DNA of 64,000 nucleotides, taken from NCBI GenBank assembly GCA_026713825.1, contig JAPONS010000051.1, positions 17,885 to 81,884 of the forward strand. Reading direction: 5' to 3'. Both the position numbers and the translations under genes were made by a program. Below are positions 2,724-39,477 of this stretch, in pieces. Position 1 is the stretch's first letter. Each line of letters opens with the position of its first letter. The stretch is from Chloroflexota bacterium (lineage in GTDB: Bacteria; Chloroflexota; Dehalococcoidia; Lucifugimonadales; UBA1127). The notes beneath the pieces were generated by a model. It saw only the letters and a list, made by a program, of their open reading frames with translations. It searched no databases and was not told where the DNA came from.

Positions 2724-3473
2724 ATGCGCTTGCAGGACAAGGTGGTCATCATCACGGGAGCCGCCCACCACATCGGCCAGGCCTACGCCGTCCGCGCCGC
2801 CCAGGAGGGCGCCAAGGTCGTCATCTGCGACGTCCGCGACTGCAGCGAGACCGCCGAGATGGTGGCGGAGGCCGGCGCAGACGTGCTGTCGCTGCGCACC
2901 GATGTGTCCAGCGAGGAGGACACGCTGGAGCTGGCCCGCCAGACCATCGAACGCTTCGGCCGCATCGACGCCATCGTCAACAACGCCGGCCTCTTTGACG
3001 GCCTGCACTCACGCACCATCCTCAACACGGACATGGAGGAGTGGGACCGCGTGATGAACGTCAACGTAAAGGGCATCTTCCTGTGCTGCCGCGCTGTCGT
3101 CCCGCAGATGATGGAGCAGGGGTACGGCAAGATCATCAACATTGGCTCCGGCATCTGGCACTGGGGAGGGAGCGGCACGCCCGCCTATGTCAGCAGCAAG
3201 GCCGCCGTCACCGGCCTGACCCGAGCGCTCTCTCGCGAGCTGGGACAGTACGGCATCCGCGTGAACACCCTCGCCCCCGGCGGCACCGCCAGCGGCGCTG
3301 TCGTTGGGCGGGACGACGACTCCCCACAGGTCCCGCCCAACTCCGGCAACCTGCTCGGCCGTCGTGAGGTGCCAGACGACCTGACGGGCACGATGGTCTT
3401 CCTCGTCAGCGAGGACAGCGATTACATCACGGGGCAGAACATCACCGTCAACGGCGGGACCAGCATGTGGTAG
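2724..3473 (+). CDS. Short-chain dehydrogenase/reductase (SDR)
   Basis: 249 aa. It has the N-terminal Rossmann motif VVIITGAAHHIGQA, the NNAG motif, catalytic YVSSK and the C-terminus DSDYITGQNITVNGG. Confidence 0.9.
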   Translation: MRLQDKVVIITGAAHHIGQAYAVRAAQEGAKVVICDVRDCSETAEMVAEAGADVLSLRTDVSSEEDTLELARQTIERFGRIDAIVNNAGLFDGLHSRTILNTDMEEWDRVMNVNVKGIFLCCRAVVPQMMEQGYGKIINIGSGIWHWGGSGTPAYVSSKAAVTGLTRALSRELGQYGIRVNTLAPGGTASGAVVGRDDDSPQVPPNSGNLLGRREVPDDLTGTMVFLVSEDSDYITGQNITVNGGTSMW

Positions 3474-3543
3474 GCCTCCGCATCACCTTCCCCATGAGCG
3501 GGATGAGGCGAGGCACAGACGTTCAGATTTGAGGGGTGACGCA

Positions 3544-4638
3544 ATGGCAACAACCACCGGCTACCAGGTAATCGACGCAGACGCCCACGTAGTCGAGACT
3601 CTGCGCACGTGGGAGTACATAGACGACTCCCAGGCGCAGCTCCGCCCCAACCTCCTCTTCTCACAGGAGTCGCCGCCCAAGCGCTACTGGCAGGTCGACG
3701 GCAAGATCCGCGGCCTCCAGCCGCAGAGCCTCTCGGAGATGGAGCTTGAGGAGCGCTCCAAGAAGTCCGGCAAGAACATCGTCACGCCGCAGGCAGCGCG
3801 TGAAATGGACGACGTCGATCTGCGGCTGAAGGACATGGACCGCCTCGGCATCGACGTGCAGGTGCTGCACAACACGCTCTGGATCGAGCAGGTCACGGAG
3901 CGCCCGGACATCGAGCGGGCCATGTGCCACAGCTGGAACCGCTGGCTGGGCGACATCTGGCGGCAGGGCCAGGGCCGGCTTCGCTGGTCGTGCGTGCCGC
4001 CGTGGATGAGCCTCGACGCCGCAGTCGAGGAGATGCAGTGGTCCAAGGAGCACGGCGCCGTCGCGGTCACCATGCGCCCCATCGAGGGCAACCGCACCAT
4101 GATCGACCCCTACTTCTACCCCATCCTCGAGGAGGCCGTGCGGCTGGACATGGCCATCGTCGTGCACATCGCCAACGCCAACCCGGGCATCGTCGACGTG
4201 ATGCGCTCACCCTACGACCCGGGCACCGCTTTCGGCCTCTTCCGCATCCCGACCGTCGCTTCCTGCCACGCCCTCATCATGAGCGAGATTCCGCAGAAGT
4301 TCCCGACGTTGCGCTGGGGCTTCATCGAGGCCTCGGCCGGCTGGGTGCCGTGGGTCATCACGGAGGCCAAGAACCGCTACAATGGCGCGGGGCGCCCGTT
4401 TCCAGACAACGTCCTGAAGGAGTACAACATCTACGTCACCTGCCAGACGGACGACGACATCCCCTACATCCTGGAATGCGCCGGCGACGACAACATCGTC
4501 ATCGGCACCGACTACGGGCACTTTGACCCTTCCAGTGAGGTGGACGCCATTTCCGTTTTCAAGGAAATGGGCGGCATCAGCGACACGGCCATGCGCAAGA
4601 TTCTCTCGGACAACCCAAAGGCCCTGTACGGCCTGTAG
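3544..4638 (+). CDS. Amidohydrolase-2 family metal-dependent hydrolase/decarboxylase (ACMSD-like)
   Basis: N-terminal VIDADAHVVE (HxH metal motif), later HIANANPG and TDYGHFD. I moved the start to ATG 3544, which lies behind GAGGGG; the ORF track begins at TTG 3529. Confidence 0.8.
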   Translation: MATTTGYQVIDADAHVVETLRTWEYIDDSQAQLRPNLLFSQESPPKRYWQVDGKIRGLQPQSLSEMELEERSKKSGKNIVTPQAAREMDDVDLRLKDMDRLGIDVQVLHNTLWIEQVTERPDIERAMCHSWNRWLGDIWRQGQGRLRWSCVPPWMSLDAAVEEMQWSKEHGAVAVTMRPIEGNRTMIDPYFYPILEEAVRLDMAIVVHIANANPGIVDVMRSPYDPGTAFGLFRIPTVASCHALIMSEIPQKFPTLRWGFIEASAGWVPWVITEAKNRYNGAGRPFPDNVLKEYNIYVTCQTDDDIPYILECAGDDNIVIGTDYGHFDPSSEVDAISVFKEMGGISDTAMRKILSDNPKALYGL

Positions 4639-4664
4639 GGCTTGACGCAGCCAAGGGGGAAGAC

Positions 4665-5759
4665 ATGACAACCAAGGTCGGCTACATGGTCATCGACTCC
4701 GACGCCCACGTGGTGGAGACGGAACGGACGTGGGACTTCATGGACGCGGAGGACGAGCAGTACCGCCCGAAGCTGGTGCAGGACCTGCACGACCCCACAC
4801 GTCAGCACTGGGTCATCGAGGGCGAGGTGCGGGGCTTCCGCTTCCCCACGCTCACGGAGATGCAGCAGGAGGCCCGCTCCCAGCGCTGGCGCAACATCTC
4901 GACTCCACAGGCCGCCCGCGAACTCGACGACGTCGCCCTGCGGCTCGAGGACATGGACCGCCTCGGCATCGACGTCCAGGTGCTGCACCACACGCTCTGG
5001 ATTGAACAGGTGGCAAAGCAGCCTGAGGTGGAGCTCGCCATCTGCAAGGGTTGGAACCGCTGGGTCGGCGATGTCTGGCGGAAGAGCGGCGGACGGCTGC
5101 GGTGGTCGTGTGTGCCCCCGTACAGCAACCTGGAAGCCGCGCTGGAGATCATGGAAGAAGCCAAGGCCAACGGTGCCGTCGCCGTGACCATGCGCCCCAT
5201 CGAGGGAGAGCGCACCATCCTGGACCAGTACTTCTACCCGATCTACGAGCAGGCCATCAAGCTGGACATGGCCGTTGCCGTGCACATCGCGAACGCCAAC
5301 CCCGGCATCGTCAACATCCTCCGCACGCCGGAGGACCCCGGCTCGGCGTTCGGCATCTTCCGCATCCCGACGGTCGCCAGTTGCCACGCACTCATCATGA
5401 GCAAGATCCCCGAGCGGTTCCCGGAGCTGCGCTGGGGCTTCATCGAGGCATCGGCCGGCTGGGTCCCATGGATTATCACAGAGTCCCGCAACCGCTACAT
5501 GGGCGCGGGGCGAAGGTTCCCGGACAACGTCCTGAAGGAGTACAACATCTTCGTCACCTGCCAGACGGACGACGACGTGCCGTACATCCTGAGTTGCGCC
5601 GGCGACGACAACATACTCATCGGCACCGACTACGGCCACTTCGACCCGTCCAGTGAGGTCGACGCCATCTCCGTCTTCAAGGAGATGGACGGCATCTCCG
5701 ACGAGTCCATGAAGAAGATCATGTCCGACAATCCCAAGAAGCTCTACGGCATAGAGTAG
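4665..5759 (+). CDS. Amidohydrolase-2 family hydrolase/decarboxylase, tandem paralog
   Basis: 364 aa. It is collinear with, and mostly identical to, the preceding protein (VIDSDAHVVE ... TDYGHFDPSSEVDAISVFKEM). Confidence 0.8.
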   Translation: MTTKVGYMVIDSDAHVVETERTWDFMDAEDEQYRPKLVQDLHDPTRQHWVIEGEVRGFRFPTLTEMQQEARSQRWRNISTPQAARELDDVALRLEDMDRLGIDVQVLHHTLWIEQVAKQPEVELAICKGWNRWVGDVWRKSGGRLRWSCVPPYSNLEAALEIMEEAKANGAVAVTMRPIEGERTILDQYFYPIYEQAIKLDMAVAVHIANANPGIVNILRTPEDPGSAFGIFRIPTVASCHALIMSKIPERFPELRWGFIEASAGWVPWIITESRNRYMGAGRRFPDNVLKEYNIFVTCQTDDDVPYILSCAGDDNILIGTDYGHFDPSSEVDAISVFKEMDGISDESMKKIMSDNPKKLYGIE

Positions 5760-5807
5760 GCCAGCACAGCTGTTAGGCAGCCACATCAACACAAAGGGGG
5801 AAAACCC

Positions 5808-7106
5808 ATGCTGTCCAGGGAAGAGAACGAACTGCTGACTCGTACGGCCTCAGGCACGCCAATGGGCGAGTTGTTCAGGCGATTCTGGCTCCCGGCCCTC
5901 ATCCCCAACGAGCTCCCGGAGCCCGACTGCCCGCCCGTGCGCTTGCGCATCCTGCACGAGGACCTCGTCGCCTTCCGGGACACCAACGGCAAGGTCGGCA
6001 TCCTCGACGCCCTCTGCCCCCACAAGCTCGCCCCGCTGTTCTTCGGCCGCAACGAGGAGTGTGGGCTCCGCTGCGTCTACCACGGCTGGAAGTTTGACGT
6101 GGATGGCACCTGCGTCGAGATGGCGAACGAGCCGCCGGAGAGCGCTTTCCGGGAAAAGGTGAAGATTAAGGCCTACCCCGTCGAGGAGTGGGGCGGACTC
6201 ATCTGGGTTTACATGGGCCCGGCGCACCTCAAGCCCGAACTCCCGCAGTTCGAGTGGGGGCGCGTCCCGGAGACCCACCGCCACCACGCGCGCTGGCTGC
6301 AGACCACCAACTGGGCGCAGGGCATGGAGGGTGAGATCGACACCTCCCACATCTCCTTCTTGCACCGCTGGATGGACCAGAGTCAGGCGCCCCAGCGACG
6401 CAACGCCCAGCGCAACTTCACCATCGTTGACGGCGCGCCCATCCTGACGCTGAACCAGACCGATTACGGCTTCGTTTACGGCGCCCGCCGCAACACCGGT
6501 AACGGCGACTACTACTGGCGCGTCACCCAATGGCTCTACCCAATGTGGAGCGTCATTGCCGCGCAGACTTGGCCAATCGGCGGCCGGGCGTGGGTGCCCA
6601 TCGACGACGAGAACACCAACGTCTTCGGTTACAACTACAACGCCGAAGCCCCCTTGACTGAGGAGCAGATCGACATGATCGAGTCGGGCCGGGCCTTCCC
6701 GCCCCGCACCACGCGTGAGAAGTTCCAGCTGGCTGATGGCACAGTCATCGACCACAACGTGGGTGTCGCCAACAAGACCAACGACTTTCTCATCGACCGT
6801 GACATGCAGCGCACCGTGAACTTCACGGGCATCTGGGGCGTCAACGAGCAGGACCGCGGGCTCCAGGAGGGCATGGGCCGCATCGTCGACCGCTCTCGCG
6901 AGCACCTCGGCACCGCCGACCAGGCAACCATCGCCGGCCGCCGCGGGCTGCTGCGCATGGCGCGTGACCTGCAGGAGGGCATCGAGCCCGCCATTGCGCA
7001 CCAGGGCGACAAGTACGGCGTCCGCTCCATGGACATCGTCAGCCCGGAAGGCGACTTCATAAAGTTCATGGAACTTCACGGAGACGCCGGCAAGGCCAAG
7101 GTCTAG
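5808..7106 (+). CDS. Rieske [2Fe-2S] non-heme-iron oxygenase, phthalate-family (alpha-only type)
   Basis: Rieske motif CPHKLAPLFFGRNEECGLRCVYHGWKFD. Mononuclear-iron motif NWAQGMEGEIDTSHISFLH. RBS AAAGGGGGA. Confidence 0.88.
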   Translation: MLSREENELLTRTASGTPMGELFRRFWLPALIPNELPEPDCPPVRLRILHEDLVAFRDTNGKVGILDALCPHKLAPLFFGRNEECGLRCVYHGWKFDVDGTCVEMANEPPESAFREKVKIKAYPVEEWGGLIWVYMGPAHLKPELPQFEWGRVPETHRHHARWLQTTNWAQGMEGEIDTSHISFLHRWMDQSQAPQRRNAQRNFTIVDGAPILTLNQTDYGFVYGARRNTGNGDYYWRVTQWLYPMWSVIAAQTWPIGGRAWVPIDDENTNVFGYNYNAEAPLTEEQIDMIESGRAFPPRTTREKFQLADGTVIDHNVGVANKTNDFLIDRDMQRTVNFTGIWGVNEQDRGLQEGMGRIVDRSREHLGTADQATIAGRRGLLRMARDLQEGIEPAIAHQGDKYGVRSMDIVSPEGDFIKFMELHGDAGKAKV

Positions 7107-7148
7107 TCGGGGCCGCCCTCAACAGCCGAATACAAGCGGGAGGAAGAC

Positions 7149-8459
7149 ATGCTGTCCAGGGAGGACAATGAGCTGCTGACCCAGACGGGGCCGGGCACAC
7201 CCATGGGCGAGTTCTTCCGCCGCTTCTGGATGCCCGCCCTCCTCTCCGAGGAGCTCCCGGATCCCGACTGCCCGCCCGTGCGCATCAAGGTGCTCAGCGA
7301 GGAGCTTGTCGCGTTCCGGGACACGAACGGCGCCGTGGGCGTCGTCGACAACTACTGCCCGCACCGCCGCGCCAGCCTGTTCTTCGGCCGCAACGAGGAG
7401 TGCGGGCTCCGCTGCGTCTATCACGGCTGGAAGTTCGACGTGAACGGCGACTGCGTCGACATGCCCTCAGAGCCCGCTGAGTCCAATTTCAGGGACAAGG
7501 TCAAGATCAAGTCCTACCCCGCCCGCGACTACGGCAGCTGCGTGTGGATCTACATGGGCCCGCGCGAGCTGCAGCCCGATCTCCCGGCCTTCGAATGGGC
7601 GCGCGTGCCGGACGAGCACCGCGTCGTGACTCGCTTCATCCAGCACTCCAACTACATGCAGTGCACGGAGGGCGAGATCGACTCCAGCCACGTCTCCTTC
7701 CTCCACAGCGTCTTTGACCTGAGCATCGACTACCACCGCGACATGCGGACCGGCGAGCAGAAGGGCGGCCGCAACTCCGTCCTCAGCTACAAGTTCGGCG
7801 CTCCCCAGCTCACCGTGAAGGAGACCGACTACGGTTTCACCTACGGCTCGCGCCGGGGCCCGGAGGAGGGCAACTACTACTGGCGCGTGACCCAGTGGAT
7901 GCTGCCGATGTTCAGCCTCATCCCCGGCCCAGCCTGGCCTCGCGGCGGCCGCGGCTGGGTGCCCGTCGACGACGAGCACATCATCACCTTCCAGTACAGC
8001 TACAACGGCGAGCGGCCCATCACGCCGGAGGAGCGCGCCCGCGCCGTCGACACGATGGAGCTGCAGCGCGTCAAGTACACCCTCCCCGACGGCGGCATCA
8101 TCGACACCTACCGCAGCGTGCGCGCCCCGGAGAACGACTACCTCATCGACCGGGAGATGCAGCGCAAGCAGAACTACACCGGCATCCTCTTTGGCAGGCA
8201 CCAGGACTTCGCCATGACGGACAGCATGGGCGGCGTCTCGGATCGCACGAAGGAACACCTCGGCACTAGCGATACCGCCATCATCGCCGCGCGGCGCATC
8301 CTGCTGCGGGCGGTCCGCGACCTTCAGGAGGGCATCGAGCCCTACGCCGCCGGCCACCCGGAGGTGTTCCACGTCCGCGCGCTGGACACCGAGTCGCCGG
8401 AGGGCGATTTCCTCAAGCTGCTGGAGGCGGAAGGGGAGAAGACAGTCGGAGTGCTATAG
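7149..8459 (+). CDS. Rieske [2Fe-2S] non-heme-iron oxygenase, phthalate-family, tandem paralog
   Basis: CPHRRASLFFGRNEECGLRCVYHGWKFD and TEGEIDSSHVSFLH. 436 aa. Confidence 0.88.
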   Translation: MLSREDNELLTQTGPGTPMGEFFRRFWMPALLSEELPDPDCPPVRIKVLSEELVAFRDTNGAVGVVDNYCPHRRASLFFGRNEECGLRCVYHGWKFDVNGDCVDMPSEPAESNFRDKVKIKSYPARDYGSCVWIYMGPRELQPDLPAFEWARVPDEHRVVTRFIQHSNYMQCTEGEIDSSHVSFLHSVFDLSIDYHRDMRTGEQKGGRNSVLSYKFGAPQLTVKETDYGFTYGSRRGPEEGNYYWRVTQWMLPMFSLIPGPAWPRGGRGWVPVDDEHIITFQYSYNGERPITPEERARAVDTMELQRVKYTLPDGGIIDTYRSVRAPENDYLIDREMQRKQNYTGILFGRHQDFAMTDSMGGVSDRTKEHLGTSDTAIIAARRILLRAVRDLQEGIEPYAAGHPEVFHVRALDTESPEGDFLKLLEAEGEKTVGVL

Positions 8460-8511
8460 TCTCGTCAAACAACGAGGCAACATCACAGAAGCACCACGAA
8501 GGAGGAATGAC

Positions 8512-9516
8512 ATGGCAGAGGTAGTCATCGGGCTCGGAACGTCACACAGCCCGCAGTTGAGCATGCTGCCGGAGGCGTGGGCATCCCGTGCGGGCGCCAA
8601 CGACCAGCGCAACCCCGCCCTCATCGGCACAGACGGCATCGTGTCCAACTACGAGGACCTGCTGGCGCGCGTCGACAAGAAGCGCCTCGAGCGGGAACTC
8701 GACCCGGAGCTGCAGATGCAGCGCCACGAGCGCAACCAGCGCGGCATCGCCCAGGTGGCGGAGGCGCTGAAGAACGCCAACGTGGACGTCCTCGTGATGT
8801 TCGGCGACGACCAGCAGGAGTATCTGACCGACGACAACATGCCGGCCTTCAGCATCTACTGGGGCAATGAGGTCAAGGTCCTCGGCCAGGGCGAGGCATA
8901 CACGGCCGCCACCGGCTACCAGCCCCTCATCGGCTACCCGCCGGAGGACAGCGTCGTCCCCACCCACGGCTCCCTCGGCAAGCACATGATTGAGTTCCTC
9001 ACCGAGGCCGAGTACGACGTTGGGTACTCTCGCTTCCTTGACCCGGACCGTGGCGGGCGCTCGCGCGGCGGCATCGGCCACGCCTTCGCCTACGTCCACC
9101 ACCGCATCATGGAGGGCCTCAACATTCCCACCGTGCCCATCATGGTCAACACCTACTACCCGCCGAACCAGCCCACGCCCAAGCGCTGCTACGACATCGG
9201 TCGCTCCGTCCGCAGCGCAATCGAGGCATGGTCGGGCAAGGAGCGCGTCGCTGTCCTCGCTTCCGGCGGCCTGAGTCACTTCGTCGTCGACGAGGAGCTC
9301 GACACGTGGACTCTGGAGGGGCTGCAGGAGAAGAACATCGTCAAGTTGCAGCAGCTCCCACGGGAGCGCCTCAACTCCGGCAACTCGGAGGCCCGCAACT
9401 GGATGTCCCTGGCCGGCGCGGCGGAGCACCTCGACATGGAGCTGTTCGACTACGTGCCCTGCTACCGGTCGCCCGCGGGCACCGGCTGCGCGATGGCCTT
9501 TGCCCAGTGGACATAG
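8512..9516 (+). CDS. Class III (LigB-type) extradiol ring-cleavage dioxygenase
   Basis: The N-terminus VVIGLGTSHSPQL and later ASGGLSHF are typical of protocatechuate-4,5/gallate dioxygenase-like LigB enzymes. Strong RBS GAAGGAGGA. Confidence 0.8.
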   Translation: MAEVVIGLGTSHSPQLSMLPEAWASRAGANDQRNPALIGTDGIVSNYEDLLARVDKKRLERELDPELQMQRHERNQRGIAQVAEALKNANVDVLVMFGDDQQEYLTDDNMPAFSIYWGNEVKVLGQGEAYTAATGYQPLIGYPPEDSVVPTHGSLGKHMIEFLTEAEYDVGYSRFLDPDRGGRSRGGIGHAFAYVHHRIMEGLNIPTVPIMVNTYYPPNQPTPKRCYDIGRSVRSAIEAWSGKERVAVLASGGLSHFVVDEELDTWTLEGLQEKNIVKLQQLPRERLNSGNSEARNWMSLAGAAEHLDMELFDYVPCYRSPAGTGCAMAFAQWT

Positions 9517-9566
9517 CCGCCAACGTGGCGCACACTGGTAATAATCACAGAAAGGTGGTCAATGAC

Positions 9567-9815
9567 ATGAGCGACGTTGCCATCACGGTGTTTTCGTCCA
9601 ACAACTGAGGCTCCTGCGAGATGGTGAAAGGGTACCTTTCACAGAAGGGCGTCGACTACGCCGTGCGGAACATCTCCGAGGACCTTGAGGCGCGACAGAC
9701 CGTCATCGACATGGGGCACCGCAGCACGCCGGTCACCCTCATAGGCGGACACAAGGTGCTGGGATTCGACCGGGCTCAGATTGACGAAGCCCTCGCCGCG
9801 GAGGGTGTGGCCTAG
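9567..9815 (+). CDS. NrdH/glutaredoxin-like redoxin with in-frame UGA at the first Cys of CxxC (candidate selenoprotein, UGSC motif)
   Basis: ATG 9567 lies 8 nt after AAAGGTGG. TGA 9606-9608 is in the same frame as ORF 9621..9815. Read-through gives MSDVAITVFSSNN-U-GSCEMVKGYLSQKGVDY..., collinear with the NrdH N-terminus (ITIYTRNDCVQCHATKRAL). The annotated 64-aa ORF alone lacks beta-1 and the redox motif. Confidence 0.6.
9624..9642 (+). promoter_or_regulatory. SECIS-like stem-loop downstream of UGA 9606
   Basis: GTGAAAGG (9624-9631) pairs with CCTTTCAC (9635-9642) around a G/U-containing apical loop (GTA, or GGTAC if the last pair opens). The stem starts 15 nt after the UGA. Confidence 0.45.
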
Positions 9816-9838
9816 CAGCTGACCACTACAGGACATGC

Positions 9839-9868
9839 GAGAGGCGCCTTCTTTTGGGGGCGCCTCTT
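9839..9868 (+). terminator. Hairpin terminator after the redoxin gene
   Basis: GAGAGGCGCC (9839-9848) pairs with GGCGCCTCTT (9859-9868) around a 10-nt loop (9849-9858). It is followed by CTTGTG. Confidence 0.55.
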
Positions 9869-9898
9869 CTTGTGCCCGTCGGCCCTGAAACATCCGTG

Positions 9899-9927
9899 TT
9901 GATAAGGAAACCTCCCAATGATAATAT
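9899..9927 (+). promoter_or_regulatory. Near-consensus sigma70-type promoter
   Basis: TTGATA (9899-9904), 17-nt spacer, TAATAT (9922-9927). It lies in a short AT-rich patch directly upstream of the small ORF at 9960. Confidence 0.6.
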
Positions 9928-9959
9928 GAAGGGCCAAATTCAAAGAAAGGAGGACGCAT

Positions 9960-10103
9960 ATGAGTATCTTGCCACTTCTTCTTACATCTCCCCAGAACAA
10001 GGGCGGCAGCGGCAAAGGCGGTGGCGGCTTGGGTAACCCGGGCTACCCAAGCACTACCGGCAACCCCTCAGGCGGCGGCAGAACCAACGGCCCCCGTAAG
10101 TAG
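9960..10103 (+). CDS. Small Gly/Pro/Asn-rich peptide (47 aa), function unknown
   Basis: Absent from the ORF track because it is under 60 aa. ATG 9960 lies 5 nt after AAGGAGGA. Translation: MSILPLLLTSPQNKGGSGKGGGGLGNPGYPSTTGNPSGGGRTNGPRK, ending at TAG 10101-10103. Confidence 0.45.
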   Translation: MSILPLLLTSPQNKGGSGKGGGGLGNPGYPSTTGNPSGGGRTNGPRK

Positions 10104-10420: not shown

Positions 10421-11149
10421 ATGAGAGCTAGCAACCACAAGGAGCCACGCATAGCCATGGCCCAGCAGCCCCCATCCCTGCCGCGCCGGTGCGTCGCCGA
10501 GTTCATTGGCACGTTCGGCCTCCTCTTCGCCGGCGCAGGCGCCATCATGATCAACGAGATCTCCGGCGGCACGGTCACCAACGTCGGGATCGGCCTCGTG
10601 TTCGGCCTGACCGTCGCCGCAATGATCTTCGCGACGGGCCACATCTCCGGCGCGCACATCAACCCCGCGGTGACCCTCGGATTCGCCCTCGCGCGGCACT
10701 TCCCGTGGAAGCTCGTGCCCATGTACTGGGGCTCGCAGCTTCTCGGCGCAACCGCCGCCTGCCTCGTCCTCCGAGGCCTCTTCGGCAACGTCGCTGACAT
10801 GGGCGCCACGCTCCCCGGCGCCGAGGAGTGGGTCGTCGTCTCCTTTGAGGCGCTGCTCACCTTCTTCCTCATGTTCGTCATCATGGCGATGGCCACGGAC
10901 ATCCGGGCCGTCGGCACGGCGGCGGCGCTGGCCATCGGCGCAACGGTAGGGCTGGAAGCCATATTCGGCGGCCCCATCAGCGGCGCGTCCATGAACCCCG
11001 CCCGATCATTCGGCCCCGCGCTGGTCAGCGCCAACTGGACCGCCCACTGGGTGTACTGGATCGGCCCGATAGTCGGCGCAGCGGCCGCCGCCTTCACCTA
11101 CGCCTGGCTGCGGGAGGGCAACGCCATGCAAAACGGGGAAGAGCAATGA
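10421..11149 (+). CDS. MIP-family channel (aquaporin/aquaglyceroporin, probable arsenite channel)
   Basis: Two NPA boxes (HISGAHINPAVT and SGASMNPARS) and six predicted hydrophobic helices. The stop overlaps the arsC start (ATGA at 11146-11149). An alternative start is ATG 10457, after AAGGAG. Confidence 0.88.
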   Translation: MRASNHKEPRIAMAQQPPSLPRRCVAEFIGTFGLLFAGAGAIMINEISGGTVTNVGIGLVFGLTVAAMIFATGHISGAHINPAVTLGFALARHFPWKLVPMYWGSQLLGATAACLVLRGLFGNVADMGATLPGAEEWVVVSFEALLTFFLMFVIMAMATDIRAVGTAAALAIGATVGLEAIFGGPISGASMNPARSFGPALVSANWTAHWVYWIGPIVGAAAAAFTYAWLREGNAMQNGEEQ

Positions 11150-11538
11150 AGAACGTCCTCTTTGTCTGCGTCCACAACGCCGGTCGGAGCCAGATGGCTG
11201 AGGCCTTCTTGAATGCGGCCGGTAGCGACCGGCTGGTCGGCGAATCCGCGGGAACAGTACCCACCGAGCACGTGAACCCCATCGTGGCAGAGGCGATGTG
11301 GGAGGTCGGCATAGACATCAGCGTCAACGCGCCAAAGGTCATCACACAGGCGATGGCCGACAACGCAGACCTCATCTTCACCATGGGCTGCGCCATCGAC
11401 GACGCCTGCCCCGCCACGTTCCTGCCCGCCGAGGACTGGGGCCTCGACGACCCTGCTGGCCAGCCCCTCGAGACCGTGCGGCAAATCCGTGACCAGATTA
11501 GAATAAAGGTCGCAGAGCTGCTGGAACGGGAGGGCTAG
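11146..11538 (+). CDS. arsC: Arsenate reductase, LMW-PTP (thioredoxin-coupled) type
   Basis: P-loop CVHNAGRS (CX5R-S) at the N-terminus. A downstream Cys pair, GCAIDDAC, is spaced like C82/C89 of the S. aureus enzyme. The DP motif is present. Confidence 0.85.
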   Translation: MKNVLFVCVHNAGRSQMAEAFLNAAGSDRLVGESAGTVPTEHVNPIVAEAMWEVGIDISVNAPKVITQAMADNADLIFTMGCAIDDACPATFLPAEDWGLDDPAGQPLETVRQIRDQIRIKVAELLEREG

Positions 11539-25648: not shown

Positions 25649-26188
25649 CTAAAAGAACGTCGAAAACACCTTGGCCAGGAGGACGTTCTGGTCAAGCAGG
25701 ATGAGTCGATTGGCGATCTTCCAGCCGGTCTCGCTGTCCCGGCGAAGAATGTCCCGCCGTGTGCCGATGAACATGACGCACTCGTCGCGCAGACGGTTAG
25801 ACCATACGAAGAAGTTGCTGCTGACCTCCACCTCATCGCCGTCCACCGACATGACGCGGACGTTGGTGATAATGTGACGCACGCGCGAGAAGGGCTCCTC
25901 CGGCCAGTGGACGCCGGTATTGAGTTGTCGGACTCGGCCCATCAGTGTGCGCTTGCCCTCGTCAAACCAGGAAATCTCGGACTCGGTGTCGGTGTTCTCT
26001 CGGTGTTGCTCGCCGAACTTTACGTTGCGGCGGATCGGCATGTGGTAGTGGATGTCCTCGGCCAGCAGGTCGCCCCATTCGCTGAACCTGCGTTCGTCCA
26101 GCAGGGCGGCCTCGTCGTACAGGAACCGCTCAATCTCCCGTTCGAGGAGCATCCGCTCCCATGCGGTGTCTGCGCTCTGGATAGTCAC
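25649..26188 (-). CDS. Aromatic-ring-hydroxylating dioxygenase beta (small) subunit
   Basis: 179 aa. FLYDEAALLDERRFSEWGDLLAEDIHYHMP... is the typical NTF2-like Ring_hydroxyl_B N-terminus. Confidence 0.85.
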   Translation of the reverse strand: MTIQSADTAWERMLLEREIERFLYDEAALLDERRFSEWGDLLAEDIHYHMPIRRNVKFGEQHRENTDTESEISWFDEGKRTLMGRVRQLNTGVHWPEEPFSRVRHIITNVRVMSVDGDEVEVSSNFFVWSNRLRDECVMFIGTRRDILRRDSETGWKIANRLILLDQNVLLAKVFSTFF

Positions 26189-26212
26189 GGACTTCCTCCG
26201 TTGTAGGGTTTC

Positions 26213-26458
26213 CTAGGACTCTATCTCCGCGGCCACCTCGGCGAAGAAAATCCAGTCCTCCGAGTCGATCGATTCCGGCCGCTCGCTCTCGATGACCCGG
26301 CCCACGAGCCAGCCACCGTCCTTGGCGTTGAGCGTGATCTCAACCAGGTCTCCGTTCTTTAACTCCAGCTTCGTGCCTTCCGGCATGTCCCGAATGAACA
26401 TGCCGTCGGGGGTATTCACCCGCTTGCGTTCCGACTTGTTGCCGCCCTCAGTTGTCAT
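26213..26458 (-). CDS. Small hypothetical protein (81 aa) between the oxygenase alpha and beta genes
   Basis: ORF with tight spacing to both neighbours. It has no Cys residues, so it is not a ferredoxin. I recognised no family. Confidence 0.4.
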   Translation of the reverse strand: MTTEGGNKSERKRVNTPDGMFIRDMPEGTKLELKNGDLVEITLNAKDGGWLVGRVIESERPESIDSEDWIFFAEVAAEIES

Positions 26459-26490
26459 AGAGCGCCCTCCGATGATGCGTCAGGCAGCGC

Positions 26491-27912
26491 CTACCACGAC
26501 GAGCTGATGCCGTTGCCGCCACGTGGCTTACCGTTGGACTTGCCGTTCTTGCGCACTGGGAAGATGTCGTCCCAGCTGCCGGCCTCCATGAACTCCACCC
26601 AACGGCGGAGCCGTGCGCGCTGGTTCTCCTCCGACGGCCCGCGGTCGCCGATGGTCACGCCGGGAATGCGCTCGTCCTGGTGGTTGTGGTGCAAACCGAG
26701 CTGGAAGTTGTACGGGAACCTCTGCGCGACCATACCAAGGCTGGCCGGGTGCGCGTAGTTCCAGTTCTCCATGTCGTCGGACTCGGTGATGCCGGCAGGG
26801 CCGCAGTAGCGCATCACGTAGCGGCGCTTGGCGTCCTTGACGTGCTTGGGGGCGTTCTTGTCGACCTGATATTGGCGCCAGCTCTCCGTCATGCCAACGC
26901 CGTGAGGGTGCCACATGAGAATGCGCCAGTCGGACATGGTGGCGTTTGGCCAGATGTGGAACTGGCCGTCGCTTTGCATGTGGAGGTATTCGTTAGCAAA
27001 GCGCTGCTGCTTGATCTCCCGCGTCTCGCGCCAGTAGTCGTCGACGCCGGGTTCGAGCAGCCACGTGTCGCGGTAGTCGGCGACGCCCGGCTGCTCGTAG
27101 ATTGCGAGCTGGCCGACGTGGCCGAGTTCCCGGCTCGACATGTAGCCGCGCTTGGACGGGAACGGCGCCGCCAACGGGTGCCGTCCGCCGCCTTCGACCT
27201 CGCCCTGCGGGCCGATGGCCGCGGCGTTGACCGAGAGGTGCGTCATGGCGGCGTGGGCGCTGTCGCCGGCAAAGCTGAAGGCGCCGAACTTCCAGTTCGA
27301 GGGGAGGCGCCAACGTTGCGCGGGCTTGTAGAGCTCGACGCCCGCGTCGGTGCCGTCGGATGCCTGGAAGGCCCAGCGAACCGTCCGCTGGAAGGGCCCG
27401 AGGTAGTCCTCGAAGGACGGGGCCTTGGGATCCCAGGTCGCCCAGATGGAGCCGTAGTAGTTGCACATCTGCGCAACTTCCGCCAGACCCCACTGACTCT
27501 TGTCCAACTCCTCAAAGTAGGCGTCCCGGTGGTGGGGCACGCCGACCAGCCGGCCGTCCGTGTCGTAAGTCCAGGCGTGGAAGGGGCAAGTGAAGACGAG
27601 GGCGTTGCCGTCGTCGTAGCGGCAGACCTTCATGCCGCGGTGGCGACAGGTGTTCAGAAAGACGTGGATCTTCCCCTTGCGGTCGCGAGTGAGGATCACT
27701 TCCTCCTCGCCCATTCGACCGAGGACGAAGTCGCCGGGGTTTTCCACCTGGCTCTCGTGGCCCACGAGGAGCCAGGCACGCCCGTAGATCTGCTCGAGTT
27801 CCTGGGCGTAGATGTCCTCGTTAACGTAAACCTCCCGGCTAATCACGCCGCTCTCGAGGTCCACAAGGTCCCGAAGGTTTCGGTCACCTCTACCCTTGAT
27901 ATACGTGACCAT
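26491..27912 (-). CDS. Aromatic-ring-hydroxylating dioxygenase alpha (large, Rieske) subunit
   Basis: CRHRGMKVCRYDDGNALVFTCPFHAWTYD Rieske motif. I set the start at ATG 27912, behind AAGGAGGA. Confidence 0.88.
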   Translation of the reverse strand: MVTYIKGRGDRNLRDLVDLESGVISREVYVNEDIYAQELEQIYGRAWLLVGHESQVENPGDFVLGRMGEEEVILTRDRKGKIHVFLNTCRHRGMKVCRYDDGNALVFTCPFHAWTYDTDGRLVGVPHHRDAYFEELDKSQWGLAEVAQMCNYYGSIWATWDPKAPSFEDYLGPFQRTVRWAFQASDGTDAGVELYKPAQRWRLPSNWKFGAFSFAGDSAHAAMTHLSVNAAAIGPQGEVEGGGRHPLAAPFPSKRGYMSSRELGHVGQLAIYEQPGVADYRDTWLLEPGVDDYWRETREIKQQRFANEYLHMQSDGQFHIWPNATMSDWRILMWHPHGVGMTESWRQYQVDKNAPKHVKDAKRRYVMRYCGPAGITESDDMENWNYAHPASLGMVAQRFPYNFQLGLHHNHQDERIPGVTIGDRGPSEENQRARLRRWVEFMEAGSWDDIFPVRKNGKSNGKPRGGNGISSSW

Positions 27913-28324
27913 GTCCTCGTCCTCCTTGCTCAATAGCCACACGCCACTAGTACGCGAGTCACTTCCCGCGTTGTTGCATAAACCTATGTTAACTGTGAAT
28001 GTTTGTCAATTCCCCTAGTGTCCGAATAGTCTCCATTCTGGAATGGGGCCAACACATCGCCTTCTTTGCCCATGCCGTCGCCAAGCTGCCCTGGCGCCTT
28101 CACCGTAGCGCGGGTCGGCGCATGGGCCCTGGCAACTCCCTGATGCAGTTCAGCAATTTGGGGCACGATGGCAGGGTAGTCGGCGGGTACAACGCAGCTT
28201 CTTCCTGAGCGATGCGCGTGGCGACTAGGAGCGGACGCGGCTTCTGAGTTTCCTTGAGGCCACGTCTACGGACAGTATATTGATGGCGCTGTAAGGCCTG
28301 AATCTGTGACTGTATGGTGTCCCG

Positions 28325-34631: not shown

Positions 34632-36143
34632 CTAGCCGGTAGACTCCATCGGCCCGGTGTAGGGCAGGGGCTCGGAGACCATCTCCCGGATGCGGTCCAT
34701 CATCTCGCTCTGGTCGTAGCCGCGGTAGAGGTTCACACGGTTGCGGTTGGGGTCGCCGCCGTGCCAGTACTCGTAGACCTCCTGACGCATGGCGAACGAG
34801 GAAGCAGCGAGGTCGTGGGCGAAGCGGAAGAGGCGGGACTTGTACTCGACGCCGACGTCCTTGCCGCGCATGTAGCGGTCGAGGTAGGGGCGGATCTCGG
34901 GGTTGGCGAGGTCGCGTTCGCTAGGCTGCATCAGGACGCCGGAGCCGGCGATCTGCCGGAGCAGCTCCACCATGCGCTGGGAAAACTGGGCGAAGAAAAG
35001 GTTCATGCCGGTGCCACGACCCAGGGACATCAGGCCGCCCTGCGTCATGTAGGCGCCGTGCTCCAACCCGTTCATGGCGTGGCGCCACACCTCCGTGAAC
35101 ATGATCATCTCGCCGAGCTTGGCGGCGACCTCACGGAACTCGTTGACGCCGATAGCCTCCGCGATCATTGAGGCCACGGCCGTCATGGTCTTCATCCGCT
35201 CATGGATACGGACGTAGTTGCTCCAACCCATGAAGTTGGCTCCGCCGGCCAGCCGCTGCACCATAGCGGATGCGTCATACAGCATGAAGACACGGTCCCA
35301 AGGCACCAGCACATTGTCAAAGAAGAGCATGCAGTCCTGCTCGTCGTACCTGATGCCAAAGGGGTGGCCATAGTGTCCGGGGTACTGCGAGACGGGTTCC
35401 CGGCAAAAGATCTTCAAGCCCTTGCTGCCGGACGGAATGGAGAAGGCCTGGATGAAGCGCGGGTCAGCCCGGCGGACGAACGTGGCGGAGAGGGAGACGT
35501 AGGTGTCGTTGCTCATGTGGGCGGCGGTTGAAACCTGCTTGCCGCCGGAAACGATGATGCCCTCATTGGTCTCCTCCACGACGTGGAGGGAGAGGTCCTC
35601 TTCTTTCACCTGCCGCGTCTCATTCTGAGGCTGCAGACTGCGGTCGACCTGCGGGTCACCGAGAGCGTGCGTCAGGAAGATGTCGTTTTCCTGGCAGAAC
35701 GTGTGATAGTTGACCACGTTTTCGCCGAAGTCGCAGTGGGGATTCTTGACGGCGCTCAGGGCCTCACGGTTGTTGTACAGGCCAAGGACGAACTGGGGCA
35801 GGAGGTCAGGACCGCGCCCAAACTGGCCCCACGCCTGCTGGTTCCAGATCTCGCTGTTGCGGCGCTTCTTGCGCAGGTCCTCGGCGCTCCTTGGCAAAAG
35901 GTATGAGAGGCTGCATCGGATGCCGCTCTCCGGCGAGACAAAGGTCATCTGGTCACGATATTCGTCCGTGTGCTGGAGTTGGTAGATGCGGGCAAGCTCG
36001 TCAATCGTGTCCTTGAAGGCGGGATGCGTCGTGACATCGGCCACCCTTTCCCCGTCGACCCAGACTTCCCGGCCGTCGCGCAGGCTCTCCTTGAAGCTCT
36101 CAGCGGTATGCGCGCCATGGGGTTTCGTTGTTTCGGTTACCAT
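34632..36143 (-). CDS. HpaB-family flavin-dependent monooxygenase, oxygenase component (4-hydroxyphenylacetate 3-hydroxylase / 4-hydroxybutyryl-CoA dehydratase family)
   Basis: About 500 aa with family-typical blocks (THPAFKDTIDELARIYQLQH..., HALGDPQVDRS, FAHDLAASSF). I set the start at ATG 36143, behind GAGGAGG. Confidence 0.75.
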   Translation of the reverse strand: MVTETTKPHGAHTAESFKESLRDGREVWVDGERVADVTTHPAFKDTIDELARIYQLQHTDEYRDQMTFVSPESGIRCSLSYLLPRSAEDLRKKRRNSEIWNQQAWGQFGRGPDLLPQFVLGLYNNREALSAVKNPHCDFGENVVNYHTFCQENDIFLTHALGDPQVDRSLQPQNETRQVKEEDLSLHVVEETNEGIIVSGGKQVSTAAHMSNDTYVSLSATFVRRADPRFIQAFSIPSGSKGLKIFCREPVSQYPGHYGHPFGIRYDEQDCMLFFDNVLVPWDRVFMLYDASAMVQRLAGGANFMGWSNYVRIHERMKTMTAVASMIAEAIGVNEFREVAAKLGEMIMFTEVWRHAMNGLEHGAYMTQGGLMSLGRGTGMNLFFAQFSQRMVELLRQIAGSGVLMQPSERDLANPEIRPYLDRYMRGKDVGVEYKSRLFRFAHDLAASSFAMRQEVYEYWHGGDPNRNRVNLYRGYDQSEMMDRIREMVSEPLPYTGPMESTG

Positions 36144-36271
36144 AGCTGCCTCCTCGTAGCGGCCCCTGCCAGTACGTGTCTTGCCACAAGTTTCTGAATG
36201 AGGGGAGTCCCAATCCTCGGTTCCGTAGCATACGCCCATGCCGTCGGCTGTTCAAGTGCAGTTTTACATCG

Positions 36272-36288
36272 CACGCGCGCTGCGCGTG
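36272..36288. promoter_or_regulatory. Palindromic operator-like site abutting the -35 box
   Basis: CACGCGC-GCT-GCGCGTG, a 7-bp inverted repeat with a 3-nt spacer. It ends 2 nt before TTGACA at 36291. Confidence 0.35.
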
Positions 36289-36290
36289 TG

Positions 36291-36319
36291 TTGACAGTTA
36301 CAGGGGGCAGGAATAGCAT
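36291..36319 (+). promoter_or_regulatory. Sigma70-type promoter candidate for the TPP-enzyme/Rieske operon
   Basis: TTGACA (36291-36296), 17-nt spacer, TAGCAT (36314-36319). It lies about 50 nt upstream of ATG 36369. Confidence 0.55.
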
Positions 36320-36368
36320 AACGCCACTTATGTCGGAGCATCAGAATTGCGAATAATGGAGGTATAGG

Positions 36369-38075
36369 ATGGCAAAGACTGTCCAAGTAGACACGGTTGC
36401 CGAGGCGTACCTGGAGTTGCTGGCGGCACGGGGTGTGGACTACTTCTTCGGCAACGGCGGCACGGACTTCGCGCCCATTGTCGAGGCCTATGCCAAGCGG
36501 TTCACGCAGGAGCAGATGCTGCCCAAGCCGATTCCCGTTCCCCACGAAATCACGGCTGTGGCTATGGCGCACGGCTACACGATGGTGACCGGCAAACCCC
36601 AGGTGGTCATGGTGCACACGATCCCCGGCACGGCCAATGCGACGAGCGGCATCATCAACGCCGCTCGCTCCAACACACCGATGCTCTTCACCGCCGGACG
36701 CACGCCGTTGACCGAGGGCGACCTGAGTGGCTCTCGCGACGGCGGCATCCACTGGGCACAGGAGTCCTTCGACCAGGGTTCCATGGTGCGCGAGTGGGTA
36801 AAGTGGGACTACGAACTGCGCTCTGATTCCGACGTTGAGGGTGTGGTGGACCGGGCGATGGCGCTTACGCAGTCCGAGCCCGCCGGCCCCGTTTACCTGA
36901 CGCTGCCCCGTGAAGTGCTGGGTAAGCGCATTGAGGAGTTTTCCTACGCGGACAAACCTCGGATGGCGCCTGCCAAGGAAACCATGCCTTCTCCGGAGGC
37001 CATTGAGGAAACCGCACAGGTACTGGCGTCTGCCAAGAACCCGATACTGGTCACACGAGCATCGGGCAGAGACACCGGGGCGGTTGCGCCACTGGTGGCG
37101 CTGGCCGAGACGCTGGGCATGCCCGTCTTCGAGTCCGGGCTCTCCTTTGTCAACTTCCCACAGGGCCACCCGCTGCACGCCGGCGGCGATGTTGCAAGCG
37201 CCCTGGCAGAGGCCGACGCTGTGATAATCATGGAAGTCGACGCGCCCTGGACGCCCAAGCGTACCGGGCCCCGCGAGGACGCGACAGTCATCGCCATCGG
37301 CGAGGACCCCCTGTACTCCCGCTACCCCATCCGCGGGTACCGCATTGACGTGACGCTGGCTGGCAGCCCCAAGCAAACGCTCACGGCGCTGAACGAAGCC
37401 GTGCAGCGCATCGGCGTGGACTCCGGGGCGGTGAAGGAACGCACAGCCAAGTGGGCGGAGGCTCGGCAGAAGCGAGGAGAGGCCACCGCAGCAAGGGCCG
37501 AGGCCGGCAAGGCTGAGGTTCCAATCAACAAAGCTTACTTCAGCCGCGAACTGGGGAAGGCATTGGACGACGACACCATCGTTCTCTCCGAGCTCGGCAT
37601 CGACTTGACCCAGATTGCCTTCACATCGCCGGGCGCCACCTACGGCATCTCGCCTGCAGGCAGCTTGGGCTGGGCCGTGGGCGCGGCCCTTGGCGCCAAG
37701 CTGGCAGCCCCGGACAAGACCATCGTGTGCTGCGTGGGCGACGGCTCCTACATCTTCGGCTCCGGGACCGCGGGCCACATCGTCTCACAGGCCCAGGACC
37801 TGCCGGTGCTGTACATTGTTTGGAACAACGGCATCTGGAACGCCGTGAAGAGCTCAGCCCGGAACATGAACCCGAACGGCTACGCTGCGCAGACGGACAC
37901 TTGGGCCGTGACAACGCTTTCTCAGGGCTTCAACTATGAAATGATCTGCCAAGCGTCTGGCGGCTATGGCGAGCGGGTGGAAGATCCGGCAGAGGTCCCG
38001 GCCGCCATCCAGCGCGCGCTGCACGCAGTGCGTGTTGAAAAGCGTCAGGCCCTGCTGAACGTTGTAGGCGGGTAA
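36369..38075 (+). CDS. Thiamine-diphosphate-dependent enzyme (acetolactate synthase large subunit / benzoylformate decarboxylase-like)
   Basis: N-terminal Pyr domain (FGNGGTDFAPIVEA) and the C-terminal TPP motif GDGSYIFG...NNGIW. Confidence 0.85.
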   Translation: MAKTVQVDTVAEAYLELLAARGVDYFFGNGGTDFAPIVEAYAKRFTQEQMLPKPIPVPHEITAVAMAHGYTMVTGKPQVVMVHTIPGTANATSGIINAARSNTPMLFTAGRTPLTEGDLSGSRDGGIHWAQESFDQGSMVREWVKWDYELRSDSDVEGVVDRAMALTQSEPAGPVYLTLPREVLGKRIEEFSYADKPRMAPAKETMPSPEAIEETAQVLASAKNPILVTRASGRDTGAVAPLVALAETLGMPVFESGLSFVNFPQGHPLHAGGDVASALAEADAVIIMEVDAPWTPKRTGPREDATVIAIGEDPLYSRYPIRGYRIDVTLAGSPKQTLTALNEAVQRIGVDSGAVKERTAKWAEARQKRGEATAARAEAGKAEVPINKAYFSRELGKALDDDTIVLSELGIDLTQIAFTSPGATYGISPAGSLGWAVGAALGAKLAAPDKTIVCCVGDGSYIFGSGTAGHIVSQAQDLPVLYIVWNNGIWNAVKSSARNMNPNGYAAQTDTWAVTTLSQGFNYEMICQASGGYGERVEDPAEVPAAIQRALHAVRVEKRQALLNVVGG

Positions 38076-38106
38076 GTCAAGCACTACCTGGAAAGGAGCA
38101 TGGCAA

Positions 38107-39477
38107 ATGCTGACCACAGAAGACAATGAACTCTTGACTCGAGTTGGTGCGGGCACGCCCATGGGCGAGCTGCTGCGTCAGTTCTGGCACCCGTTCATGC
38201 CCTCCCGCGACGTGGAGGTCGACGGGCCGATGAAGCGCGTGCGTCTGTTGGGCGAAGACCTCGTCTGCTTCCGCGACTCCAACGGTGACGTGGGCCTTGT
38301 CGCAGAGAACTGCCCGCACCGGGGCGCGTCGCTCTTCTTCGGCCGAAACGAGAACGCCGGCCTCGCCTGTAACTACCACGGCTGGAAGTTCGACACCACC
38401 GGCGCCTGCATTGACATGCCGAATGAGCCGGCGGAGAGCAACTTCAAGGACAAGGTGCGCGCGACCGCATACCCCGTCCGAGACGTCAACCACATGCTGT
38501 GGGCCTACATGGGGCCGCGGGAAACGCCGCCGCCCTTCCCCGCATTTGAGATCAATACCCTTCCGGAAGAAAACGTGCTTCCTCCCCACATCATGGTTGA
38601 GGAGTGCAACTGGGTGCAGGGACTCGAGGGCGACCTTGACTCCTCGCACGTCTTCTTCATCCACGGCCGGCTGCGAGAGGAGCAGGTGGGACCGAAGGGA
38701 GTGATGCTGGGCGCGTGGGCGCACGATCTGGCGCCAACCCTGGAGGTGGTCCCCCAGCCATACGGTGTCGTGTACTCTGCGAAGCGGCAGTGGAAGAGGG
38801 ACAGCTCCGAGGTCTACCACCGAATCACGCAATACATCTACCCCTACTTCAGCATGATCGCGGCAGGCAGCCAAAACTCAGTCTCGGCCAGGGCATGGGT
38901 GCCCATCGACGACGAGTACCACATGCTCATCAGCATGCGGGGCAAGTTGGATGGCCCGGTCACTGAGGAAGAACGGGCGCGGGCGCTCGACCCCTTCGTG
39001 CTGTCGGGCGGCTACGTGGAGGAGACGCCGGACCCGCGGACGCGGTACCACACGGCGGCCAACAAGACCAACGACTTTCTGCTGGACTACGAAATCCAGA
39101 AGACGCTGAACAAGTCCGGCATACCCTTCGCAGGGAATCTGCAGGACCGGGCAATGACCGAAACAATGGGCCCCATCTATGACCGGCGCAAGGAGCACCT
39201 GGGCACCAGCGACCGGATGATCATCATGGTGCGCAAGCAGTTGATGGCCGCGGCGCGGCAATACATGGAGGATGGGTCAGTGCCCGCCGTCGTAGACGAC
39301 GAGAGGCTGTACCGCGTCCGTTCGGCGTCGATCATTCTCCCTCCGGGAGAAGACTGGAAGGCACACACTGACAAGGCCCGTAATGCCGACGCCGGCGTGC
39401 CAATCGCGGCAGTGCCGCTGGGTGGCTCGGATGAGTTTGCACCGGCCATCGGCAAGGGCGTAAACCCATACGCGTAG
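38107..39477 (+). CDS. Rieske [2Fe-2S] non-heme-iron oxygenase, phthalate-family
   Basis: CPHRGASLFFGRNENAGLACNYHGWKFD and LEGDLDSSHVFFIH. RBS GAAAGGAG. Confidence 0.88.
   Translation: MLTTEDNELLTRVGAGTPMGELLRQFWHPFMPSRDVEVDGPMKRVRLLGEDLVCFRDSNGDVGLVAENCPHRGASLFFGRNENAGLACNYHGWKFDTTGACIDMPNEPAESNFKDKVRATAYPVRDVNHMLWAYMGPRETPPPFPAFEINTLPEENVLPPHIMVEECNWVQGLEGDLDSSHVFFIHGRLREEQVGPKGVMLGAWAHDLAPTLEVVPQPYGVVYSAKRQWKRDSSEVYHRITQYIYPYFSMIAAGSQNSVSARAWVPIDDEYHMLISMRGKLDGPVTEEERARALDPFVLSGGYVEETPDPRTRYHTAANKTNDFLLDYEIQKTLNKSGIPFAGNLQDRAMTETMGPIYDRRKEHLGTSDRMIIMVRKQLMAAARQYMEDGSVPAVVDDERLYRVRSASIILPPGEDWKAHTDKARNADAGVPIAAVPLGGSDEFAPAIGKGVNPYA

Follow-up and report, generated by a model that had tools for sequence, protein, structure and literature searches.

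Glutaredoxins that carry selenocysteine (Sec) as the first residue of a UxxC redox motif belong to the known selenoproteins; as the initial annotation of the locus described here had stated for thioredoxin-fold proteins, 'Glutaredoxin, PF00462, UxxC' is among the experimentally supported prokaryotic selenoprotein families. One natively Sec-containing protein of this kind is cGrx1 of Clostridium oremlandii, whose motif is U(C)PXC and whose Sec was changed to Cys for crystallography (PMC7642778). The consensus model of the bacterial selenocysteine insertion sequence (SECIS; Zhang and Gladyshev 2005, as summarised in PMC13188914) has an apical loop of 3–9 nt, a stem of 4–16 bp, a folding energy of at most −7.5 kcal/mol, a G within the first two positions of the loop, as a rule with G or U next to it, and a distance of 16–37 nt between UGA and loop. 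Here, a 64,000-nt stretch of DNA from a marine Chloroflexota bacterium (class Dehalococcoidia; contig JAPONS010000051.1, positions 17,885–81,884; hereafter the window) was analysed for an in-frame UGA (9606–9608) in a short glutaredoxin-like gene at 9567–9815. We consider it very probable that this UGA is a genuine Sec codon in a glutaredoxin-fold gene, decoded by the mechanism set out below. On sequence grounds, the basis for this reading is a continuous frame in which purifying selection acts before and after the UGA, a UGA that is itself conserved, a hairpin that is kept in Sec forms and lost in Cys forms, and homology to cGrx1 as an experimentally established selenoprotein.

The coding sequence runs on the forward strand from ATG 9567–9569 to TAG 9813–9815 (82 codons including Sec14; based on translation, the Pfam match, alignment to structure 7C10 and conservation of the frame in 15 loci). 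The features from which the initial annotation had started were all found in the sequence: a 64-aa open reading frame (ORF) at 9621–9815, the only one reported there in the ORF listing; an ATG in the same frame, 8 nt past a Shine-Dalgarno-like AAAGGTGG (9551–9558, forward strand, read directly, with a core conserved in relatives); TGA 9606–9608 as the sole interruption of the frame between 9567 and the TAG; and a translated read-through product composed of MSDVAITVFSSNN, the stop position and GSCEMVKGYLSQKG...AAEGVA. The Shine-Dalgarno core, GAAAGG or AAAGGAGG, recurred with unchanged spacing in all but one of 14 related Dehalococcoidia loci, the exception (L013) having TAGGTGG, and other upstream bases diverged among loci. 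With Cys put at the stop, the 82-aa product matched Pfam Glutaredoxin (PF00462) over residues 6–62 with E 7e-14 (52.2 bits, cut-off 22.9; profile positions 1–58 of 60 covered); the match takes in both the strand upstream of the TGA and the redox motif and thus places the product in this fold. As the domain spans the UGA, the 64-aa ORF by itself is without strand 1 and without the redox motif. Strand 1 is encoded by the 13 N-terminal codons (9567–9605, forward strand), which are missed by gene callers and whose coding character is seen in their pattern of variable sites. The UGA (9606–9608, forward strand), read as Sec14, supplies the first residue of the UGSC redox motif and aligns with the catalytic Cys of NrdH and glutaredoxin structures; TGC 9615–9617 (forward strand) encodes the resolving Cys17 of the UxxC motif, an invariant column of the protein alignment, for which TGC or TGT was found in 47 of 47 distinct Sec-form sequences. 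The best match among solved structures was 7C10/7C12, that is, cGrx1 (E 2e-11), whose Cys13, natively Sec, aligns with the UGA of the window. A homologue in an Alkaliphilus metagenome-assembled genome (MAG), which matches 7C10 with E 1e-25 and is 38% identical to the window protein, has TGA at the site and the same 19-nt hairpin 15 nt after it.

Relatives were searched in a library of 5.8 billion proteins, which returned 16; no full-length Cys orthologue was among these 16, and all 16 were called as ORFs of 59–64 aa that begin immediately past the region of the UGA, bearing out the expectation that standard gene callers overlook the gene. DNA was taken from 12 metagenome loci and from four 'Dehalococcoidia bacterium' genomes found by a genome scan (two of them complete chromosomes). 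The close set consisted of 14 loci and the window (15 sequences, 12 distinct; the distant locus L005 was left out), with protein identities reaching down to 72%. All 15 close loci retain the ATG and the TGA, the 13 codons upstream of the latter, the GSC motif and the hairpin. Among the 12 distinct sequences, the upstream codons had 1, 0 and 8 variable sites at codon positions 1, 2 and 3, respectively, with mean pairwise differences of 0.27 at third and 0.006 at first plus second positions; 9567–9605 is therefore translated in this frame and under purifying selection. Third-position divergence fell to 0.07 between the UGA and the end of the hairpin, compared with 0.27 upstream and 0.33 downstream, a dip that is expected of an RNA structure overlaid on a coding sequence.

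The wider family, obtained by the genome scan, comprised 46 relatives in species genomes from Chloroflexota, Nitrospirota, Bacillota (Thermincola, Desulfotomaculaceae, Alkaliphilus), Abditibacteriales, Acidobacteria and others, covering at least six phyla. An orthologue alignment, proposed earlier as a check, showed TGA at the site in 40 of the 46, Cys in five and Ser (TCA) in one. Two of the findings that had been named as evidence against a selenoprotein were looked for in these relatives, with a negative outcome. Orthologues do not start at the downstream Met, which is CTG in L004 and CAG, AAA or other codons in other phyla; the UGA is not specific to one strain, as the counts in the close set and the species genomes show; and its flanks are not decaying, both sides being under purifying selection. 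Together, the conserved UGA, the constrained flanks and the unconserved downstream Met rule out a pseudogene or assembly error as well as a true gene of only 64 aa. The 64-aa part was also searched, without a profile, against 1.84 billion cluster representatives (50% identity). Among the 150 matches listed (cluster representatives), 74 were without the N-terminus, 56 had CxxC and 4 had WxxC at the site; the latter, 4 of the 76 listed relatives that are full-length, are explained by translation of TGA as Trp and thus are mis-translated selenoproteins in public protein sets. In L018 (1595–1828, a Chloroflexi groundwater MAG) the TGA site is TCA (Ser) and the hairpin is intact, which points to an erroneous base call or to a Sec codon that has recently become one for Ser; this MAG also holds a Cys paralogue with a degraded hairpin (L027, 10001–10240). 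The most distant Sec form among the fetched metagenome loci (L005, 1–9355; UTGC motif, 42% identical to the window protein, 74% G+C) lies among genes for a lipoate-protein ligase, TusA, DsrE, ETF and a heterodisulfide-reductase-like iron-sulfur protein, a sulfur-oxidation-type context quite unlike that of the window.

The hairpin lies at 9624–9642 (forward strand), with a stem formed by 9624–9631 and 9635–9642, the apical loop GUA at 9632–9634 and 23 nt from UGA to loop. The earlier description of it was confirmed (8-bp stem, loop starting with G, beginning 15 nt past the UGA, −8.5 kcal/mol), and so was its likeness to bacterial SECIS elements: with its 3-nt loop starting GU, the stem length, the distance and the energy, all rules of the consensus model are satisfied. 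The Sec forms all carry GUGAARG-N5-CUUUCRC exactly 15 nt after the UGA, where N5 is AGUAU, GGUAC or AGUUG, and 7–8 of the 8 pairs are formed at the same register in 48 of 48 distinct Sec-form genes. For 47 distinct sequences, the same hairpin was predicted independently by RNAalifold, and 98.1% of pair cells were paired, compared with 40–64% when the partners were slid. Two pairs vary solely via G-U wobble, in 9 sequences each (18 pair-keeping changes). At the closing pair, 31 sequences have A-U and 10 have G-C, the latter forming the Dehalococcoidia clade of the window; the underlying change from GAG-UAU to GGG-UAC combines an amino-acid change with a synonymous change and preserves the pair. 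Codon choice within the hairpin was compared with the same amino acids elsewhere in the same genes: the Leu codon of the 3' arm is CUU in 48 of 48 Sec forms (11% elsewhere), the Val codon is GUG in 48 of 48 (39% elsewhere) and the Ser codon is UCA or UCG in 47 of 48 (33% elsewhere). The five Cys forms encode a near-identical peptide but use CUC or CUG and UCC, and 5–7 of the 8 pairs are left. These codons and pairs indicate that selection keeps the hairpin in Sec forms but not in Cys forms.

Several observations weigh against a Sec codon or lessen the force of the evidence for it. Taken as a single sequence, the hairpin is within chance, with about 3.5% of TGA trinucleotides in the window preceding an equivalent hairpin and the 66-nt region folding no better than its shuffles (z = −0.65); its significance therefore comes only from the comparison with relatives. 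There, covariation is modest (5 of 8 pairs are invariant), and the single double change at the closing pair may be one event inherited by the clade. The second pattern of the genome scan was the peptide VK[GE][YL]LS..., which covers the residues encoded by the hairpin, so that the amino acids at these positions were selected by the search and the codons were not. No SelA, SelB or SelD was found among 50 ORFs of the window scanned with Pfam, no tRNA gene, tRNA-Sec included, was found by ARAGORN in the 64 kb of the window, and no tRNA-Sec was found by the same program in the flanks of the 58 fetched loci. Two in-frame-TGA screens gave no second convincing gene with an in-frame UGA in the window (the first of them missed the target gene itself, because the open frame upstream runs back into LigB). 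A search of the literature for SAR202 and selenocysteine found nothing relevant. Two Dehalococcoidia MAGs, with 49 and 46 selenoprotein genes, are among the ten most selenoprotein-rich bacteria (PMC13326102), which supports the presence of the Sec machinery at the level of the class.

The other ways of accounting for the UGA differ in which of these observations they can accommodate. If decoding were of the SelB type and Cys or another amino acid were inserted by a tRNA-Sec-like tRNA, the conserved UGA and the hairpin would be explained equally well, and the absence of Sec-synthesis genes from the window would be in keeping with it; Mukai et al. (2016) reportedly found Sec sites that are naturally recoded in this way, by tRNA-Sec-like tRNAs carrying Cys. 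Such systems are rare, the family includes an experimentally established selenoprotein, and Dehalococcoidia, reported to be rich in selenoproteins, need a Sec pathway, which makes this explanation very unlikely. The possibility that the real gene is the 64-aa ORF from ATG 9621, preceded by an untranslated leader that contains the 13 codons and the UGA, has in its favour the output of every gene caller and the presence of that ATG in the window. Its product would be without strand 1 and the whole redox motif, its start is CTG in L004 and a non-start codon in other phyla, no Shine-Dalgarno sequence precedes it whereas one is conserved together with the ATG at 9551–9569, and an untranslated leader is at odds with the 1/0/8 variation of the upstream codons; we regard it as extremely unlikely.

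The UGA could also be an assembly error or a nonsense mutation in a glutaredoxin gene that is decaying, since pseudogenes are commonly recognised by one in-frame stop in a short gene. The same TGA was, however, present in independent assemblies from many samples and at least six phyla, purifying selection acts on both flanks, and protein identities of 72–93% to the window exclude copies of one contaminant sequence; the probability left for this explanation is close to nil. A genome-wide reassignment of UGA to a standard amino acid (of the code 4 or code 25 type) would fit with TGA being an unusually rare stop (5 of 53 crude gene calls, compared with 37 for TAG and 11 for TAA) and with the Trp that some pipelines put at the site in relatives. 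Against it, the standard code yields 53 genes of normal length, all of them unbroken by TGA, two ATGA overlaps have TGA as the stop of a gene (11146–11149, between the MIP and ArsC-like genes described below, and 50822–50825), and homologues have Cys, not Trp or Gly, at the site, so that reassignment, too, has a negligible probability. TGA as the rarest stop is unusual at 62% G+C, and the same bias was seen in related Dehalococcoidia loci; of the five TGA stops, two belong to the ATGA overlaps, where stop and start codon share bases. As a speculation, rare TGA stops might ease competition between termination and Sec insertion.

With the UGA as a Sec codon, the gene would encode an 82-residue glutaredoxin-fold thiol/selenol-disulfide oxidoreductase, codon 14 of which is read as Sec. 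The 19-nt hairpin inside the coding sequence would act as a bacterial SECIS: SelB-GTP-Sec-tRNA(Sec) would bind the G-U-containing apical loop while the UGA, 23 nt upstream, occupies the A site, and Sec would be inserted in place of termination. The U-G-S-C active site would lie at the start of helix 1, with Sec14 as the attacking nucleophile and Cys17 resolving the selenenylsulfide; re-reduction would be by a thioredoxin-reductase-type enzyme or a low-molecular-weight thiol. We infer the SelB mechanism, the insertion of selenium in this organism, the electron donor and any specific service to enzymes of the operon, and commit ourselves, as regards activity, to a generic selenol/thiol-disulfide oxidoreductase.

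Upstream of the gene, Pfam assigned the genes of the operon at 2724–9516 (forward strand) to one SDR, two Amidohydro_2, two Rieske/LigXa-type oxygenases and one LigB-type extradiol dioxygenase, without a reductase domain, in agreement with the aromatic-catabolism context that had been proposed. The selenoprotein gene starts 50 nt after LigB and is the last of seven genes on the same strand, with gaps of 26–55 nt; it is followed by a GC-rich 12-bp hairpin and UCUUGUG (9840–9867, forward strand; −37.8 kcal/mol, z = −5.2 compared with shuffles), a terminator-like end of the operon. In L001 and L003, too, the gene is followed by a similar GC hairpin; a simple consensus terminator scan did not call the hairpin at 9840–9867, after which a promoter-like site is found. 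The same gene order was present in close loci that carry the flanks, with one Rieske gene in L001/L002. The selenoprotein gene is probably co-expressed with the upstream genes of the operon. As far as Pfam names go, the order of amidohydrolase, Rieske/LigXa and LigB resembles lignin-derived aromatic pathways; NCBIfam equivalog models were all below their cut-offs. The earlier hint that the protein stands in for the missing reductase of the operon found no support, and nothing supports the idea that a glutaredoxin could take over from the ferredoxin and reductase on which Rieske oxygenases depend. The 50 window ORFs scanned with Pfam included neither a ferredoxin nor a ferredoxin reductase.

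A dedicated role in the aromatic operon is roughly an even bet. The other possibility, to which we give slightly less than an even chance, is that the protein is a general redox protein or the reductant of an ArsC-like protein and merely shares its gene order with the Rieske/LigB operon. Downstream, at 10421–11538, a MIP-family channel gene and a 130-aa low-molecular-weight-phosphatase-type ArsC-like gene are joined by an ATGA overlap; the latter was called at 87–105 aa in several long-read assemblies, probably because of frameshift errors. The 130-aa protein resembles thioredoxin- or glutaredoxin-coupled arsenate reductases, below family cut-offs, and, about 1.3 kb downstream, could be an alternative client of the Sec-glutaredoxin. 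A general function would also agree with the neighbours in other phyla (Pfam, 128 neighbouring ORFs), which are heterogeneous, with no consistent partner, and include pyridine-nucleotide disulfide oxidoreductases, rubrerythrin, heavy-metal ATPases and rhodanese. Gene order is common to all close loci over at least 20 kb, which makes adjacency weak evidence for a specific role. What speaks against a function apart from the operon is the position of the gene on the same strand as LigB and 50 nt after it, its separation from the MIP/ArsC pair by the terminator-like hairpin and the promoter-like site, and its retention where the operon has lost one Rieske gene (L001). A more specific proposal, that the selenoprotein is a dedicated accessory of a lignin-type aromatic pathway in marine Dehalococcoidia, is unlikely in our estimate; such an accessory could, for example, keep the Fe(II) LigB dioxygenase or thiol-sensitive enzymes reduced amid catechol/quinone intermediates and, if true, it would be the first selenoprotein tied to aerobic aromatic-ring catabolism.

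Elsewhere, the window holds many LigXa-type Rieske oxygenases and amidohydrolases. Further aromatic-oxidation genes are found at 25649–27942 and 34632–42152 (Rieske alpha and beta subunits, an HpaB-type hydroxylase and a thiamine pyrophosphate enzyme), and within these regions three more LigXa-type Rieske oxygenases stand in a row. The presence of rpoB, rpoC and polA shows that the window is chromosomal. At 1–2000 the G+C content is 52.5%, compared with 60–66% elsewhere, and no ORF with coding-like composition was found at 453–1888. On the minus strand at 44733–45422, a 181-aa ORF without a Pfam match is called from a start that lies 21 nt past an in-frame TGA (45299); this TGA is preceded by 43 open codons with a coding-like G+C content at third positions (0.8), without an evident redox motif.

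The family, the UxxC chemistry and the logic of the SECIS are known already, and one member of the family has been characterised experimentally; knowledge of Sec decoding and of glutaredoxins is left unchanged by the present finding. New here, judged apart from the BSepDB listing, are the lineage, the UGSC variant of the motif and the operon context, together with the observation that a single 19-nt SECIS, almost unchanged from phylum to phylum, goes with the family and is degraded in its Cys forms. The near-identity of this element in at least six phyla could mark the gene as a 'selenoprotein cassette' that moves horizontally and functions with divergent SelB proteins. In practical terms, the family-wide hairpin is a simple and specific search pattern for further members. 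A real gene is mis-annotated everywhere, the 16 close relatives and about half of the 150 listed representatives being stored as headless fragments of 58–66 aa without the active site. Once annotated correctly, the gene extends by one selenoenzyme the redox repertoire of a lineage that is abundant in the ocean and known to degrade recalcitrant organic matter, and the position of the gene inside an aromatic-catabolism operon provides a testable link between selenium supply and carbon turnover.

The window protein and its hairpin were finally compared with the systems they resemble. Like the fdhF-type SECIS of E. coli, the hairpin is a stem-loop within the coding sequence just past the UGA, with a small apical loop that starts with G and then U; it differs in having no sequence resemblance and a simple 8-bp stem without a bulge, and, unlike fdhF-type elements and the bacterial SECIS consensus, it is nearly identical across phyla within one protein family. 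An Rfam scan of 9400–10000 matched no family. With the UGSC-containing selenoprotein family NF041046, which was described from ocean metagenomes (Zhang and Gladyshev 2008, PMC2398784), the protein shares the identical U-G-S-C tetrapeptide, a presumed thioredoxin-like fold and an origin of the kind in which that family is abundant, aquatic metagenomes; NF041046 is without a Pfam domain, whereas the window protein is a clear PF00462 member, and as the NF041046 model gave no match at E up to 1, the shared motif looks coincidental. The UXX-star glutaredoxin-like selenoproteins (NF041212, NF041114, NF041211) have a distantly similar glutaredoxin-like fold and were rejected (NF041212, 29.1 bits, cut-off 66); judged by the family name alone, their Sec lies in UXX just before the stop, whereas the window protein ends in AAEGVA followed by TAG and has its single Sec at residue 14. 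The YruB-family model TIGR02196, although the best NCBIfam match, was likewise rejected (68.1 bits, cut-off 88.55).

The parallel to NrdH drawn by the initial annotation held in part: residues 2–68 of E. coli NrdH (1H75) align to residues 5–71 with E 2.4e-5, but the NrdH models stayed below their cut-offs (NrdH redoxin TIGR02194, 57.1 bits, cut-off 85.75; E. coli-type NrdH NF007657, 31.8, cut-off 131). NrdH proteins (1H75 and, from Corynebacterium, 1R7H/4FIW; E 9e-8 to 2e-5) are like the window protein in size, fold, position of the redox motif and a C-terminal xGF(D/R); they use Cys, and their CVQC and WSGFRP signatures are absent from it. No ribonucleotide reductase domain, as would be expected for an association with the class Ib enzyme nrdEF, was found by Pfam among the 50 larger ORFs of the window. 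With cGrx1 of C. (Alkaliphilus) oremlandii OhILAs (7C10/7C12/7C13), the window protein has in common the PF00462 fold, a length of about 80 residues and Sec as the first residue of UxxC. The two differ in motif (UGSC in the window protein, UPHC in cGrx1), in phylum (Chloroflexota and Bacillota) and in setting, since cGrx1 is proposed to reduce a selenoprotein MsrA and the window gene ends an aromatic-catabolism operon with no MsrA nearby; cGrx1 is experimentally established as a selenoprotein, and the window protein is known from its sequence alone. From these comparisons, cGrx1 is the nearest characterised relative of the window protein, for which 'NrdH-like' is an approximate description.

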